In this document: positions 3,950 to 52,133 of the stretch, piece by piece
How positions within the stretch are numbered: position 1 is the first letter of the stretch
How the letters are laid out: each line of letters starts with the position of its first letter
DNA from: Chloroflexota bacterium
GTDB taxonomy: Bacteria; Chloroflexota; Dehalococcoidia; UBA2979
Assembly: GCA_009839925.1 (NCBI GenBank)
Contig: VXOS01000053.1
Location: 2,447-66,446 of the forward strand
DNA length: 64,000 nt
Reading direction: 5' to 3'
Translations under genes and position numbers: made by a program
The notes under the pieces: generated by a model
What the model was told of the DNA's origin: nothing
What the model saw: only the letters and a program-made list of their open reading frames with translations
The model's database searches: none

Positions 3950-5110
3950 TCAGTCCGGCAGGTAGAGCAGCGGGTTGCGGCGCACGCCGTTGACCTTGAG
4001 TTCGAAGTGCAGGTGCGGGCCGCTCGTGCGCCCGGTCAGGCCGGCATGGCCGAGGACAGTCCCCGCTTCGACCGCGTCCCCGTGCTTCACCGCAAAGTTG
4101 CGCAGATGCGCGTAGAGCGTCGTGAACCCGCCCCCGTGCGCGACCTCGACGTACAGCCCGTAGGAGCAGCATGCGGCGCCACCCACGAAGACCACCGTTC
4201 CGGCGGCCGACGCCCTGATCGGCGTGCCCACCGGTGCGCTGATGTCGATCCCCAGCGGGTGGCTGGGACCGAAGTACGAAGTGATCACGTTTCTGGTGGG
4301 CCAGCTGAAGTTGTAGCGCCACTTCGCTGCCGCGATCAGGCCGGGAGTTGGCTGCGAGGGCTGCGCGAGGCGGCCATTCGGCACGAGAATCGTCGTACCC
4401 GCGACGATGCCGCCATCCCTCCCGAGCTCGTTCGCCTCGATGATATCGACGACCTTGGCGTCGTACTCCTCCGCGATCTCGAGCAGTGTCTCGCCGTAGC
4501 GCACGCCGTGGAGGATCCCCGGCCTGCTCGGCATCTGCAGCTCCGCCCCGACCCGCAGGAAGTCCGCGTCGGTAATGACGTCGATGTTGTTCCAGAGGAT
4601 GTAGTAGCCGGCGAGGTCGAAGCGTTCGGCGAGGCCGCTGACCGTGTCACCCGGCTGCACCTTGTAGCGGTACAGCAGTGGCTGCCGGACGAGTTCGCCT
4701 TCGTCGGCGAGGGGAGGTGCGACCGGCGGGCTGGCCACGTCGCTCGTACTCGCTGCATCGGCCGCCCAGGCGCCATCGATCATCGGATCCGCCCGCCCGA
4801 CAAACCCCCAGCGTGTTGGCGGGGTCTCCGGCCGCGGCGGGATCGGCCGCGGAACGGCCGCCGGCAGCGCGGCAGGCCGCGCCCAGACGGCCACGCCCGC
4901 AAGGCCCGGCAGCGAGATCTGCGAGGCCCTCAACGCCGGCCCTGGCCGGGCTGGACTCGCGGCTCCCGGGAAGAACCCCGCGATCAGGACGCCGGCCAGG
5001 ACGAGCGCGACGACCACGGCGCTCGGCACGGGCAGCGCAGCCGCAATCCGCGAATCACCATCGCCGCCGATCCGCGGGCGCTGCTGCAGCCGCAACTCGC
5101 GCCCGTTCAC
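3950..5110 (-). CDS. Membrane-anchored LysM-domain M23 family metallopeptidase
   Basis: N-terminal TM helix, Pro-rich linker, two LysM-like repeats (YKVQPGDTVSGLAERF; HGVRYGETLLEIAEEYD) and a C-terminal M23 domain (HPLGIDISAPVGTPI...GPHLHFEL). Confidence 0.8.
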   Translation of the reverse strand: MNGRELRLQQRPRIGGDGDSRIAAALPVPSAVVVALVLAGVLIAGFFPGAASPARPGPALRASQISLPGLAGVAVWARPAALPAAVPRPIPPRPETPPTRWGFVGRADPMIDGAWAADAASTSDVASPPVAPPLADEGELVRQPLLYRYKVQPGDTVSGLAERFDLAGYYILWNNIDVITDADFLRVGAELQMPSRPGILHGVRYGETLLEIAEEYDAKVVDIIEANELGRDGGIVAGTTILVPNGRLAQPSQPTPGLIAAAKWRYNFSWPTRNVITSYFGPSHPLGIDISAPVGTPIRASAAGTVVFVGGAACCSYGLYVEVAHGGGFTTLYAHLRNFAVKHGDAVEAGTVLGHAGLTGRTSGPHLHFELKVNGVRRNPLLYLPD

Positions 5111-6735: not shown

Positions 6736-8250
<1,515 letters not shown>

Positions 8251-23610: not shown

Positions 23611-23705
23611 CGCCTGCCCCCTGTCCGCGCCGCGCGCCCGCAACGACTGCGCCCCGCCTGTCGGGGCGGGGCGCAAGTGTAGCGACTCAGTTCTGGGCCT
23701 CGCGG

Positions 23706-24050
23706 CTACCAGCGGCGACCGCCGCCTCCGCCTCCACCGCGGCTACCGCCGTCGCGGCCTCCGCCACCTCGGCCTCCGCCGCCACCGTCGCGACCTCGAC
23801 CGCCGCCCGAGCCGCCGCGGCCTCCGCCGTCGCGACCACGGCCGCCGCCGCCACGGCCTCCACGACCGCCGCGACCCTCGCCGCCGCGGTTGCCACCACG
23901 GCCTCCGCCGTCGCGACCACGGCCGCCGCCCGGGCCGCCGCGGCCTCCGCCGCCGCCACCACCACGGCCGCGACCGCCGGCGAAGGCGGGCTCGCGCTCC
24001 GGCTCGTCGGCGCCGTCGGCGAGGCCGACGCGCTCGCTGCCGTCCTCACC
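23706..24050. repeat. Periodic GC-rich coding repeats (ggcctccgccgtcgcgaccacggccgccgcc recurs) encoding the PNPase GR-rich tail
   Basis: A repeated 31-nt block at about 23818 and about 23900, plus shorter ccgccgcc periodicities. These are coding on the minus strand, not a CRISPR array. Confidence 0.6.
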
Positions 24051-49146: not shown

Positions 49147-50319
49147 ATGACCGGTTCGACGATCACGGACCTTCGCTACTACCTGGTCCACCCCACGCCG
49201 CCCGAGACCGGGCAGCCTGATCGCTACACGGCGGGCAAGAACCTCTGCTTCGTGCGCCTCGAGACCGCCGACGGCCTGCACGGCTGGGGCGAGTGCTACA
49301 CGCAGTCCGATCGCGACATCCAGATCACCGCGCACCTCGAGGCGCTGCGGCGCTACATCGAGGGTTGGGACGCCGCGCGCATCAAGCCCTGGACCGACGC
49401 GATCTACAACGACTTCGGCAACCGGCGCGGCGCGATGGATCTCTACTCTGCGATCTCCGGCGTCGAGCAGGCGATGTGGGACCTCGCGGGCAAGCGCGCC
49501 GGCATGCCCGTGCACCAGTTGCTCGGCGGCGCGGTCCGCGACCGGCTGCGCGTTTACGCCAACGGCTGGGCGCGCATGGACGACCTCGATGACCTGCAGG
49601 CCCGGGCGCGCGCGATGGCCGATCGCGGCTTTACCGGGCTGAAGTTCGACCCGGTGCCGGGCAAGTGGCGCAGCTACGTGGGCATGCCGGAACTGCGCAC
49701 CGCCGCCGATCGCGTCCGCGCGGTGCGTGAGGCGGTCGGTCCCGACGTCGACATCCTCGTCGAGGTCCACCGGCGGCTGAGCCCCTCGAACGCCGTGCGG
49801 CTGGCGAAGCTGGTCGAGGAGTACGAGCCGTACTGGTTCGAGGAGCCGGTCTGGGCGGAGAACATCACCGCCCTCGCCGCCGCCACGGCGCAGATCAACA
49901 TCCCCACGGTCACGGGCGAGGAGCTCTACACCAAGTTCGAGTTCCGGGAGGCCTTCGAACAGCGCGCCGCCGACATCATCAACCCGGACGTGGCGAACGT
50001 CGGCGGCATCAAGGAGCTGACGGAAATCGCGGCGATGGCCGAGGCCTACTTCGTCGCCGTCAGCCCGCACAACTACAACTCGACGACGGTAGCGCTGGCC
50101 TCGACACTGCAGGCCGCGGCGACGATGCCCAACTTCATCATCACCGAGTACTTCGTGAACTTCGAGCCGTGGGGCCGGGAAGCCGCGACGCCGGCTTTCG
50201 AGGTCGAGGACAGCCACATCGCCCTCCCCACCGCGCCGGGCCTCGGCATCGACCTCGACGAGGAGGTGCTGAAGGCGCATCCGGCGCGGGAGTTCCCCGT
50301 GCGCACGATCGGCGACTGA
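49147..50319 (+). CDS. Enolase-superfamily enzyme (mandelate racemase / muconate lactonizing enzyme family; galactonate dehydratase-like)
   Basis: N-terminal capping domain plus a TIM-barrel metal-ligand region (FDPVPG...VEVHRRL...FEEPV). Confidence 0.75.
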   Translation: MTGSTITDLRYYLVHPTPPETGQPDRYTAGKNLCFVRLETADGLHGWGECYTQSDRDIQITAHLEALRRYIEGWDAARIKPWTDAIYNDFGNRRGAMDLYSAISGVEQAMWDLAGKRAGMPVHQLLGGAVRDRLRVYANGWARMDDLDDLQARARAMADRGFTGLKFDPVPGKWRSYVGMPELRTAADRVRAVREAVGPDVDILVEVHRRLSPSNAVRLAKLVEEYEPYWFEEPVWAENITALAAATAQINIPTVTGEELYTKFEFREAFEQRAADIINPDVANVGGIKELTEIAAMAEAYFVAVSPHNYNSTTVALASTLQAAATMPNFIITEYFVNFEPWGREAATPAFEVEDSHIALPTAPGLGIDLDEEVLKAHPAREFPVRTIGD

Positions 50320-50342
50320 CTGTTTCCGGCAGCCTGATCCGG

Positions 50343-50480
50343 CTCCCTCTCCCTGGGGAGAGGGCGGGGGTGAGGGGGAGGACTCCCGCGCGCCTCCGAA
50401 CGCCCCGTGGCGCAGGGCAATCCCGGACGCCGGACCCTCCCTCACCCTGACCCCCTCCCCCGGGGAGAGGGGACCGGGAG
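50343..50480. repeat. Nested GC-rich inverted repeats (ccctctccc-tgg-ggagaggg palindromes inside a ~38-nt imperfect inverted repeat with ~55-nt spacer); MITE/REP-like or structured RNA
   Basis: Read directly. Arm 1 is ccctctccctggggagagggcgggggtgagggggagg; arm 2 is ccctccctcaccctgaccccctcccccggggagagggg. The reverse complement of arm 2 matches arm 1 with a few mismatches. Confidence 0.5.
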
Positions 50481-50660
50481 GGATGCGCTCGCTGCCCTGA
50501 GGAGAGGGTTCGCAACGGCCTCCCCTGGATTCCGGCTTTCGCCGGAATGACGGTTGTGCAAAGGTTCCCGAGGGGAGGGTTGGGGTGAAGGCCTGAGCCC
50601 CGCCCCGGCCCCGGTCCGCGAACCCGGACTGGGAACGATCGATGCGGACGGAGCTGGCCA

Positions 50661-52058
50661 ATGACCGATGATCTCGCTTACGCAACGATCGAGGAACTCG
50701 CCCCGCGGATCGCCTCAGGGGCGCTGTCGCCGGTCGAGCTGACGCAGGCCCAGTTGGACCGCATCGAGGCGCACGACGGTCGGCTCAAGAGTTACGCGAC
50801 CGTGATGGCTGATTCGGCGCTGGCGGAAGCGCAGCAGGCCGCGGACGAGATCGCCGCCGGCAACTATCGCGGTCCGCTGCACGGGATTCCGGTCGCGGTC
50901 AAGGACCTCTGCTACACGACGGGCGTCCGCACGATGGGCGGGACGAAGGTGCTCGAGGACCTCGTTCCCGACTTCGATTCCACGGTCGTCGCCCGATTCA
51001 AGGACGCCGGCGCCGTGATGCTGGGCAAGCTCAACATGACCGAGGGCGCGATGGCCGGATACAACCGCGCGCGAGAGGTGCCGGTGAACCCCTGGGACGC
51101 CGGACGCTGGACCGGCGTCTCCTCCAGCGGCTCCGCTGTGGCGACGGCGGCCGGGCTTTGCTACGCGTCATTGGGCAGCGACACCGGCGGCTCCATCCGT
51201 ACGCCGTCCGCGGCCTGCGGCATCGTCGGCCTGAAGCCGACCTGGGGACGCGTGAGCCGCTACGGCGTGATCGACCTGGCGCAGTCGCTCGACCACGTCG
51301 GCCCGATGTGCCGCTCGACCTGGGACTGCGCCGTCACGCTCGAGGCGATCGCGGGCGACGACCCCAACGATCCGACCACGCTGCCCGAGCCGGCCCCGGC
51401 GATGCTCGACGGGATCGAGGATGGCGTTGCGGGTATGCGGATCGGCTACGACGAGCGCTACGCGACCGAACCGGTCATCCCGCCAATCGCCGAGGCCGTC
51501 GCCGCATCGGTCGAGCTCCTGGCCTCGCTGGGCGCGGAGATCGTCCCGGTGCAGCTGCCCGACTTCGAGCCTTACATGGCCGACCTGGCGACGCTCTGCT
51601 CGGTCGAGGCGCTGCACGCGCATCTCGACAACTATCCGGACCGGGCCGACGACTACGGCAACTGGTTCGCCGCCTGGCTGGAGCTGGGGTCGTCGTTCAG
51701 CGCGACCGACTACGCCGACGCCTGCATCCGCCGCGAAGAGCTGCGCGGCCTGCTGGCTCGGGTCTTCGCCGGCATCGAGATGTTGGCCTGTCCGGCCCAG
51801 GGCACGCTGCCGCATCGGGTGACCGAGGACATGATGTACGACGACACGCCGGGAGAATTCCGGTGGTCGCGGCTGCAGTACACGGCCCCCTGGGACATGA
51901 ACCGCGCCCCGACGCTGACGCTGCCCAACGGCTGGAGCGATCGGGGGATGCCAATGGCGCTGCAGCTCGTCGGTCCGCTGGGCAGCGAACAGGCGCTCTG
52001 CCGGGCCGGCTACGCCTACGAGCAGGCGACGGACTTCATGCGCAACCCGGAACTCTAG
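50661..52058 (+). CDS. Amidase signature (AS) family amidase
   Basis: [33 protein letters not shown] signature with the Ser-cisSer-Lys triad (K in VKDL). Confidence 0.8.
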   Translation: [465 protein letters not shown]

Positions 52059-52133
52059 CGCGGACAAGCGGCGACCGATCGCTCGGGAGCGGGATGGGCC
52101 CATGAATCAACGAGCAATGCCGGGGGCAGTCGA

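Follow-up and report, generated by a model that had tools for sequence, protein, structure and literature searches.

The spacer at positions 50320–50660 of a 64-kb stretch of DNA from an uncultured Chloroflexota bacterium (the whole stretch is hereafter called the window) raises the question of what a 341-nt intergenic region filled with GC-rich palindromes represents, a mobile repeat or a structured RNA, both of which had been suggested in an earlier note on this DNA. The data presented here indicate that the region is almost certainly a cluster of dispersed repeats of the BoxC/TM_ECO type, a kind of repeat described since the 1990s, lying between an MR_MLE enolase-superfamily gene and an amidase gene. 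It is very likely to be a mosaic of non-autonomous interspersed repeats put into a decaying intergenic spacer, not a locus-specific regulator, and units of the same kind bracket genes of the DUF559 family in other genomes.

Two complete units were found in the spacer. Unit 1, on the plus strand, consists of a C-stem (50345–53, CCCTCTCCC), a TG loop, a G-stem (50356–64, GGGAGAGGG), a CGG loop and a third segment (50368–76, GGGTGAGGG). Unit 2, read on the minus strand, is CCCTCTCCC-CGG-GGGAGGGGG-TCA-GGGTGAGGG, its C-stem being the reverse complement of 50463–71, and the two units are therefore inverted with their G tails opposed across a 62-nt spacer. A 21-nt motif, GGGAGAGGGNNGGGGTGAGGG, has three matches in the window, all in this spacer, against 0.03 expected, and the full three-segment pattern gave these two units against none in 50 shuffles. 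A sequence-free scan of the whole 64 kb for the triple motif returned real examples only at 50344–50508, and no other copies of the motif were present elsewhere in the window. The earlier note had described GC-rich palindromes forming an imperfect inverted repeat of two arms, and these are real: the arms (50343–50381 and 50435–50472) lie 53 nt apart, agree at about 31 of 40 positions with three gaps when aligned as reverse complements, and were recovered by a repeat search as inverted repeats I1 (26 nt, 81%), I3 (20 nt, 85%) and I4 (20 nt, 85%). Each has its own palindrome, as had been stated (CCCTCTCCC-TG-GGGAGAGGG at 50345–50364 and CCCCCTCCC-CCG-GGGAGAGGG at 50451–50471), and the further hairpin reported, TTCCGGCTTTCGCCGGAA, was located at 50530–50547. 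What the two-arm description missed was the third, G-rich segment and the fact that the arms are two whole opposed units.

The units were compared with the published TM_ECO pattern, CCCTCNCCC-N3-6-GGGNGAGGG-N3-GGGNGAGGG (Holder et al. 2015, PMC4666352). Both begin with CCCTCTCCC, corresponding to the 9-nt pyrimidine stem CCCTCNCCC. The first purine stem GGGNGAGGG, with one mismatch allowed, is exact in unit 1 (GGGAGAGGG) and has one mismatch in unit 2 (GGGAGGGGG), and the 3-nt second loop and second purine segment GGGNGAGGG are present as CGG plus GGGTGAGGG in unit 1 and TCA plus GGGTGAGGG in unit 2. The first loop of unit 2 (CGG, 3 nt) is within the published 3–6 nt and that of unit 1 (TG, 2 nt) is outside it; for this palindrome, 2-nt AC/TG loops are on record from Enterobacter sp. 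638, where 100 copies of CCCTCTCCCXX(X)GGGAGAGGG occur at gene 3' ends (PMC2869309). Among 5426 complete E. coli genomes, 4634 contain unannotated intergenic matches to window positions 50338–50385, at best with 90.5% over 40–42 nt, and one of these E. coli matches, downstream of mmuM, likewise forms an inverted pair. The unit is known as BoxC, PIT or the TM_ECO 'intrastrand triplex motif', with 3610 occurrences in 262 proteobacterial genomes and 23 in E. coli K-12, where it is always intergenic and in five cases forms closely spaced inverted pairs; as a single strand the E. coli motif folds into a triplex in vitro, as seen by circular dichroism and nuclear magnetic resonance, and an association with variation of the intergenic region between strains has been reported (Holder et al. 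2015, PMC4666352). Under the name HPGQ, this sequence also appears in the literature as a 'G-quadruplex-hairpin-duplex switch' (Kaplan et al. 2016, PMC5100583), and the window unit, with four G3 tracts, has a formal G-quadruplex motif in common with TM_ECO.

Dispersal of the repeat was examined by searching viral contigs with the general unit pattern and species genomes with the subfamily flanked by TCCGGCT, the totals being lower bounds. More than 120 stretches were present among the viral-contig matches listed for the general pattern, and more than 117 genome stretches among those listed for the TCCGGCT subfamily. The latter came mostly from Chloroflexota (Dehalococcoidia, Anaerolineae and Ktedonobacterales) and Planctomycetota, and also from Thermodesulfobacteriota, Acidobacteriota, Cyanobacteria and some Proteobacteria, often as several stretches per metagenome-assembled genome (MAG). 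When all fetched loci were compared by BLAST, window positions 50331–50524 matched L147 (OY839116.1) at 91.8% over 196 nt, L145 (VXMT01) at 88.5% and three loci of OZ219871.1 at 89.7% (L129), 87.9% (L178) and 76% (L152), so that a block of 150–195 nt recurs at unrelated loci of related Dehalococcoidia/Chloroflexota MAGs with 88–92% identity. Multi-copy status was seen in MAGs with the same composite element (OZ219871.1, OZ250164.1 and VXMU01). The core of this composite consists of TCCGGCT, a plus-strand unit, a conserved spacer, a minus-strand unit and GACCGG, to which three copies add outer inverted arms (GGGAGACCTTTGCGAAACTCCC...). It is small (core about 140 nt, long form about 250 nt) and has terminal inverted repeats, TCCGGCTCCCTCTCCC ... 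GGGAGAGGGGACCGG(A/G), of the type found in miniature inverted-repeat transposable elements (MITEs). Repetitive extragenic palindromic (REP) elements carry a conserved 5' GTAG-type head, and no such head was present in the aligned composite copies. The copies at unrelated loci, the wide distribution of the family and the absence of the element from this locus in close relatives support the earlier description as a MITE/REP-like element.

A link to a protein-coding gene was provided by a locus of OZ219871.1 (L204) in which 13 units lie within 8 kb around a 114-aa open reading frame (ORF). This ORF encodes a DUF559 protein (PF04480, E = 2.6e-44), whose nearest solved structure, 3HRL, was deposited as an 'endonuclease-like protein'. 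On the left, 62 nt of the DUF559 element in L204 align with the window doublet (about 88%), and on the right 48 nt do so (about 90%), the approximately 410-nt interior with the gene being missing from the doublet. The ends are thus common to the doublet and to a longer gene-bearing element of putative autonomy, and the doublet is probably a gene-less relative of this DUF559 element bounded by triplex-motif units. A gene resembling those for REP-associated tyrosine transposases (RAYTs) was considered for L204, the repeat-richest locus, and rejected: the neighbours there are sulfatase, FGE-sulfatase and succinyl-CoA ligase-like genes, and the repeat-flanked ORF is DUF559. In none of these loci is the repeat-flanked gene a Y1 RAYT, being DUF559 instead, although no search was aimed at RAYT genes. 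The spacer can be divided into the following features.

50320–50337, plus strand: ancestral stretch ctgtttccggcagcctga after the MR_MLE stop codon, outside the repeat; common to L002, a relative without repeats.
50338–50344, plus strand: left terminal linker TCCGGCT of the doublet; kept in all composite copies and also forming the left end of the DUF559 element in L204.
50345–50376, plus strand: triplex-motif unit 1 (C-stem, loop, G-stem, loop, third segment); resembles the E. coli repeats.
50377–50438, no strand: doublet spacer of 62 nt, 88–92% conserved among composite copies; the DUF559 gene occupies this slot in gene-bearing relatives.
50439–50471, minus strand: triplex-motif unit 2, with one stem mismatch and its tail toward unit 1; from pattern and repeat scans.
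50472–50477, plus strand: right terminal linker GACCGG, complement of the left linker, from the composite alignment; right end of the L204 element.
50478–50524, plus strand: right outer arm of the long form of about 250 nt, with hairpin GGAGAGGGTTCGCAACGGCCTCCCC; present in L147, L129 and L152, the BLAST match reaching 50524.
50525–50553, plus strand: second, unrelated dispersed hairpin CTGGATTCCGGCTTTCGCCGGAATGACGG (CTGGA-TTCCGGC-TTTC-GCCGGAA-TGACGG); further copies in fetched loci.
50567–50591, plus strand: degenerate or truncated unit 3, CCCGAGGGGAGGGTTGGGGTGAAGG; repeat D2, with a 3-mismatch motif match.
50606–50660, plus strand: ancestral amidase leader, outside the repeat, with a small hairpin and GGAG 8 nt before the ATG; homologous in L242, L243 and L244, which are without repeats here.

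The left linker and C-stem form a 16-nt terminal inverted repeat with 50463–50477. Only the outer parts of the 62-nt doublet spacer align to the L204 element, and the inverted left outer arm present in L147, L129 and L152 (GGGAGACCTTTGCGAAACTCCC) is absent from the window copy. In unit 3 the G-stem and third segment are kept and the C-stem is reduced to CCC. The second hairpin (50525–50553) belongs to a family of its own, with nine further copies in the fetched loci that have the same flanks, often abut triplex-motif units and belong to a number of MAGs, among them Dehalococcoidia, Chloroflexota and Thermodesulfobacteriota; BLAST matches of 29–31 nt at 100% were also obtained. Copies of its form CTGGATTCCGGC-NNNN-GCCGGAATGACGG were noted at L129 4761 and 4965, L204 1038 and 1265, L179 122, L205 5697, L150 3213 and L229 6934. 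The hairpin presumably resembles 'GTCATTCCCGCGAAAGCGGGAATCCAG' repeats of Proteobacteria.

The protein set of the window corresponds to NCBI MYB41335–MYB41340. Upstream of the spacer is the MR_MLE gene (49147–50319) and downstream the amidase gene (50661–52058); both lie on the plus strand and are co-directional, so the earlier wording of 'convergently unrelated' genes was wrong. Nor is the spacer devoid of ORFs, as had been claimed, since program-made ORFs do overlap it, as they do everywhere in 70% GC DNA. The stem letters of the hairpin in the amidase leader differ between the window (50606–50660), L242 (2940–3000) and L243/L244 (2950–3000), and the hairpin and GGAG are present in all relatives; this hairpin may be a real terminator of the upstream gene or an amidase leader element.

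The same interval was then compared in close relatives. In L002, which encodes an identical MR_MLE protein, the spacer is 90 nt long and has no unit; only 17 nt at its start and 14 nt at its end are common to it and the window. L243 (3.1-Mb contig) and L244 (4.05-Mb contig) have spacers of 94 nt, also without a unit, and in L242 (3.48-Mb contig) a 490-nt spacer holds an MR_MLE pseudogene fragment, of which the L002 spacer is a remnant. One spacer further on, L242 does have a unit and the window does not. Among metagenome contigs sharing window sequence, one ends 40 nt past unit 1 with different sequence and another starts inside unit 1. The block therefore varies among close strains in these spacers and sits in a decaying, rearranging spacer, behaviour like that described for E. 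coli TM_ECO by Holder et al. (PMC4666352).

Several further observations concern these relatives. Contigs with identical proteins have the sample prefix ENGE20-1, which we take to be the sponge metagenome of Engelberts 2020. Two contigs of one metagenome fork in unit 1 (L003 11231–11270 and L001 1–20, window about 50362–50416), and L003 after ...GGGGGTGAGGG runs on with ctgtctcttagacagatcaccgcgcccacgagg, similar to the L002/L242 pseudogene remnant (tctctctagac...). Because of this resemblance the L003 tail is likelier to represent a third allele of this spacer, with a single unit, than a second genomic copy; it also agrees with the Nextera adaptor in 16 of 19 bases, which was taken as coincidence. 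Decayed MR_MLE fragments and also duplicated gene 3' ends are present in the MR_MLE/amidase/MR_MLE cluster of L242 (2592–2933 and 4627–4821; compare window 52059–52133), a leader cccatgaatcaacgagcaatgcc... is common to each MR_MLE paralogue upstream, and a triplex-motif unit lies exactly on one duplication junction (L242 4833–4865). The gene following the amidase is replaced by DDE_Tnp_1 and IS110-family transposase genes at L243 4477–6892 and L244 4472–6886. The MR_MLE/amidase neighbourhood is a rearrangement hot spot.

A DUF559 ORF or fragment was found between units in five further motif-selected loci, giving 6 of approximately 240 TM-selected loci in all. As these first loci had been chosen by the motif, the association was re-tested in loci chosen by protein only, comprising 30 viral loci fetched with the DUF559 profile and 80 metagenome loci fetched with a three-protein DUF559 alignment. 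By inspection of the viral loci, the DUF559 gene is bracketed by repeats in the great majority, with letters that differ by subfamily; each repeat runs from a pyrimidine stem through a loop into a purine stem, followed in some cases by a small hairpin, and then into a third segment rich in purines. In the metagenome loci, 124 TM_ECO-type units lie within 250 nt of the DUF559 gene (3.30/kb) versus 6 in the other 198 kb (0.03/kb); a unit adjoins the gene in 54 of the 80, and on both sides in 26 of the 57 with full flanks. Inward-pointing tails were counted for 40 of the 58 units upstream of the gene and for 49 of the 66 downstream of it. The protein-chosen loci with bracketed DUF559 genes span many phyla, and this inward orientation is the usual one. 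Compact DUF559 units measure about 420–450 bp, and in several loci the G tail ends approximately 6–30 nt before the start of the protein match. DUF559 loci without a TM_ECO match have the same architecture in other letters.

A detector independent of sequence was applied to all 110 DUF559 loci (217 gene flanks), with a mirror defined as A or T opposite A and at most one mismatch. A pyrimidine/purine hairpin was present in 193 of the 217 flanks and a hairpin followed by a mirror-image third segment in 120, compared with control rates for the latter of 3.9% in shuffled downstream sequence and 2.4% in windows at least 900 nt from the gene. When the third segment was compared with the purine arm, the mirror relation was the better in 84 cases and the direct relation in 37, with 61 tied, many stems being near-symmetric and non-discriminating. 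Asymmetric stems keep a mirror third segment, as in GGGGGAAGG then GGATGGGGG, GGGGGAGG then GGTGGGGGG and GGGAGGGG then GGGGAGGG, and the three segments co-vary across DUF559 subfamilies with the third staying a mirror of the purine arm. Retention of the mirror relation in asymmetric stems points to the geometry of an antiparallel purine-motif triplex, not to an alternative Watson-Crick hairpin. An alternative-hairpin/G-quadruplex switch was also considered as the conserved feature and discarded, as the asymmetric subfamilies keep the mirror and not the complement of the C-stem, which favours triplex-type symmetry. That the window units themselves would form a purine-motif triplex as single-stranded DNA has indirect support from this conservation of the mirror segment across DUF559 subfamilies, and because these loci were chosen by a neighbouring protein and not by a triplex search, they provide an independent argument for selection on triplex-type mirror symmetry.

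Repeats were also found beside DUF559 genes in named genomes. In Deinococcus psychrotolerans (CP034185.1) near-perfect inverted repeats of about 50 nt with the triple motif surround a DUF559 gene between paaD and paaZ, and motifs accompany DUF559 in Sphingomonas parapaucimobilis (CP155749.1), plasmid pAQ6 of Picosynechococcus PCC 7002 and Neisseria gonorrhoeae. E. coli K-12 ycjD, the only annotated K-12 DUF559 gene examined, ends in a degenerate unit, with a full TM_ECO unit approximately 190 nt downstream toward fabI. The 3' end of the DUF559 gene runs into the distal unit, and the ycjD stop codon of E. coli lies in the hairpin loop (L276 5408–5425). In loci of a variant subfamily (L307, L329 and L333) the third segment directly abuts the ATG, and elsewhere it lies a few to about 30 nt upstream (for example L319 2459–2503). 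Abutting the ATG, it could serve as a ribosome-binding site; together with the position of the ycjD stop codon, this suggests that folding of the repeats could control translation of the DUF559 nuclease.

In alphaproteobacterial-looking contigs (L256, L264, L265, L268, L269, L271–L273 and L275) the DUF559 element lies just downstream of GAAC-N7-GAAC (for example gagaacaaaatgagaacaatc), about 60–110 nt upstream of the gene. This box is presumably the alphaproteobacterial LexA box, and its position next to the DUF559 element may reflect an SOS-regulated neighbour or a preferred insertion site. The strains in the TM_ECO count table of Holder et al. were grouped by phylogroup. On these assignments the units per strain number 1–2 in B2, 6–7 in F, 10–11 in E, 12–15 in D, 13–24 in A, 23 in C and 25–30 in B1 (Table S7, PMC4666352), and ycjD has been reported in phylogroups A, B1 and C, with eefRABCD in its place elsewhere (PMC12817139). 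The comparison of unit counts with ycjD distribution is suggestive and phylogenetically confounded. Within the sapF-fabI interval, ycjD and its units occupy the position of the eefRABCD efflux operon of other E. coli phylogroups (L276 5030–5840; PMC12817139), and part of the ycjD 3' end is duplicated in the stretch that separates ycjD from the full unit.

These data can be brought together in a model in which the window doublet would have arisen as a MITE- or REPIN-like internal-deletion derivative of a DUF559 element bounded by triplex-motif units (REPIN, REP doublet forming hairpins), and would be moved or copied in trans by the DUF559 nuclease, a Vsr-like PD-(D/E)XK enzyme, by analogy with RAYTs and REPINs. 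The nuclease would recognise the ends in folded form, probably when the DNA is single-stranded in the course of replication, and such recognition would account for the third segment being kept as a mirror of the purine arm in purine-motif triplex geometry. Solo units and gene-less doublets would be the non-autonomous progeny, in a parallel to REPIN/RAYT with a PD-(D/E)XK nuclease replacing the Y1 transposase. Local effects would be side effects, namely instability of the spacer between strains and strong hairpins in any transcript reading through from MR_MLE to amidase. Tentatively, DUF559 may be the mobilising enzyme of such units, a role proposed by analogy. BoxC/TM_ECO repeats in general can be put forward, with similar caution, as the candidate ends of a compact cross-phylum selfish element of about 420–450 bp that encodes only a DUF559 Vsr-like nuclease.

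A number of observations weigh against this interpretation. At the level of the element, no target-site duplication is visible at the ends of the window, L145 or L178 copies, no clean pair of filled and empty sites with exact boundaries came to light, and the repeat block here replaces pseudogene remnants and interrupts no intact sequence. The 64-kb read of the source MAG contains one cluster and no DUF559 gene, and the middle 37 nt of the doublet spacer has no convincing alignment to the L204 element. At the level of the gene, tails point outward in Deinococcus, directly repeated units flank the gene in Sphingomonas, Picosynechococcus and Neisseria, and E. coli phylogroups reported without ycjD still have 1–15 units. 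Neither double-stranded DNA nor footprinting in vivo gave Holder et al. a triplex (PMC4666352). The link between DUF559 and the motif is an association, and DUF559 could be a passenger, a homing gene on pre-existing doublets or a host factor.

The homing alternative, in which DUF559 is a selfish gene inserting into pre-existing doublets and the window doublet is an unoccupied target site spread or kept for some other reason, is unlikely. In its favour, the Vsr/DUF559 clan contains a group I intron homing endonuclease (PD-(D/E)XK survey, PMC3424549), the DUF559 gene lies exactly between the two tails in compact units, and most units are gene-less, an adjoining DUF559 having been found in so few of the TM-selected loci. 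This alternative leaves unexplained the gene-less doublets at unrelated loci with 88–92% identity, and co-variation of the motif letters with DUF559 subfamily is what would be expected if gene and ends travel together or if the nuclease specifies the ends, less so with opportunistic insertion. At the other extreme, that the palindromes are chance products of 70–75% GC intergenic DNA has next to no probability: single units do gain no folding stability over composition-matched shuffles (z about 0), but the excess of motif matches, the empty shuffles and the near-identical 195-nt copies elsewhere rule out a chance origin.

Readings that rest on RNA were assessed from the predicted folds. The folding check suggested earlier was positive, the 341-nt region being more stable than shuffles with z = -3.4 on the plus and -3.5 on the minus strand, near-equal values being expected for a DNA palindrome. 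As DNA, the doublet (50338–50482) folds at -47.9 kcal/mol (plus) and -49.0 kcal/mol (minus), with z = -2.4 and -3.0, and the hairpin at 50525–50553 has z = -2.9. No compensatory change was seen among the 52 pairs of the consensus hairpin predicted from five composite copies; these copies are too alike, and the covariation test itself therefore says nothing for or against RNA or DNA structure. It is improbable that the hairpins have been co-opted for a local role, stabilising the MR_MLE mRNA 3' end or attenuating read-through into the amidase gene as E. coli REP sequences do. Such a role would fit the stability of the 341-nt RNA fold and the position of unit 1, which begins 25 nt past the MR_MLE stop codon in the sense strand, and a termination role was presumed for the Enterobacter sp. 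638 palindromes at gene 3' ends (PMC2869309). It is opposed by the absence of the block from close relatives with the same two genes, by the equally good antisense fold and lack of covariation, and by the finding that the terminator proposed in the earlier note has no T-run, there being no hairpin-plus-T-run site in 49800–51200; an earlier study, as cited by Holder et al. (PMC4666352), found no promoter or terminator activity in E. coli. Still less likely, to the point of being very improbable, is a structured small RNA gene or cis-regulatory RNA such as a relative of whalefall-1. This Rfam family (RF01762) does match unit 1 with 28.8 bits (E about 1e-5) and unit 2 with 15.1 bits, taking in the 3' AGGGNGAGGAC, yet both scores are under the gathering score of 37 and the 24-nt insert of the model is 9 nt here. 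The Rfam check returned nothing at gathering thresholds in the whole window, and beyond sub-threshold whalefall-1 the E-value scan gave only noise matches to miRNA and snoRNA families; a sigma-70 promoter scan around the spacer found nothing. Copies lie at unrelated loci and in either orientation, and the lack of compensatory change among the 52 pairs together with the absence of the element from orthologous loci argues against a locus-specific RNA. The structured-RNA half of the earlier proposal is accordingly not supported, with no Rfam family above threshold, both strands folding alike and orthologous loci lacking the element. It is more likely that whalefall-1 is itself one of these repeats than the reverse.

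Elsewhere in the window, imperfect short-period tandem repeats at 23689–23988 and 8044–8169 have spacings in multiples of 3 (9–21 nt), are GCC/GCG-rich and are probably low-complexity coding sequence. Paralogous pairs with 72–80% identity were noted at 3957–4665/5307–6057, 48891–49109/56009–56227 and 53876–54283/56364–56774; some overlap ThiS- and PALP-type genes, which suggests duplicated sulfur-carrier/PLP-enzyme modules.

Taken alone, the window feature is a further copy of a known repeat. Its wider interest is that the BoxC/TM_ECO sequence of E. coli also populates Chloroflexota, Planctomycetota and other phyla, and forms longer composite elements there. In the triplex-motif papers covered, these repeats have been characterised as triplex or G-quadruplex formers and tied to genome instability, with no purpose or route of multiplication given (PMC4666352, PMC5100583). 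The strong, geometry-specific association with DUF559 provides a concrete model that is testable in E. coli K-12, where ycjD belongs to the gene family, and suggests a function for a Pfam DUF; if it is true, the motif-associated genome instability of E. coli would be a footprint of the activity of this element. None of the triplex-motif and YcjD papers covered draws a link between DUF559/ycjD and these repeats, and no title or abstract in the DUF559, YcjD and later intrastrand-triplex literature that was covered suggests it; this coverage is incomplete and a prior description is possible.

Among known systems, the window element shares with TM_ECO the three-segment unit in near-same letters (CCCTCTCCC, GGGAGAGGG and GGGTGAGGG), the 3-nt second loop, an intergenic site, a closely spaced inverted pair and strain-to-strain change of the spacer. 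It differs in its host, an uncultured sponge-associated Chloroflexota MAG, whereas strict TM_ECO has been reported from proteobacterial genomes, and in that the pair lies inside a composite element of 150–250 nt with its own conserved spacer and outer arms. Whalefall-1 (RF01762; Weinberg et al. 2010, PMC2864571) has a similar CUCUCC/GGAGAG hairpin followed by AGGGNGAGGAC, but the score is sub-threshold, the spacing is different and the window shows no sign of an RNA role. Like a MITE, the doublet is small, non-coding and dispersed, with terminal inverted repeats and ends in common with a longer gene-bearing element; unlike a MITE, it has no visible target-site duplication and its partner gene is not a known transposase. 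REP units lack the third, mirror-image segment found in the window unit. The resemblance to the REPIN/RAYT system lies in two inverted short palindromic units that form one long hairpin of about 100–150 nt, in many gene-less copies and few with a gene, in a partner gene flanked by the repeats and in the absence of target-site duplication, the difference being that the partner here is a DUF559 PD-(D/E)XK (Vsr-like) nuclease of about 110 aa and not a Y1 transposase of IS200/IS605 type.

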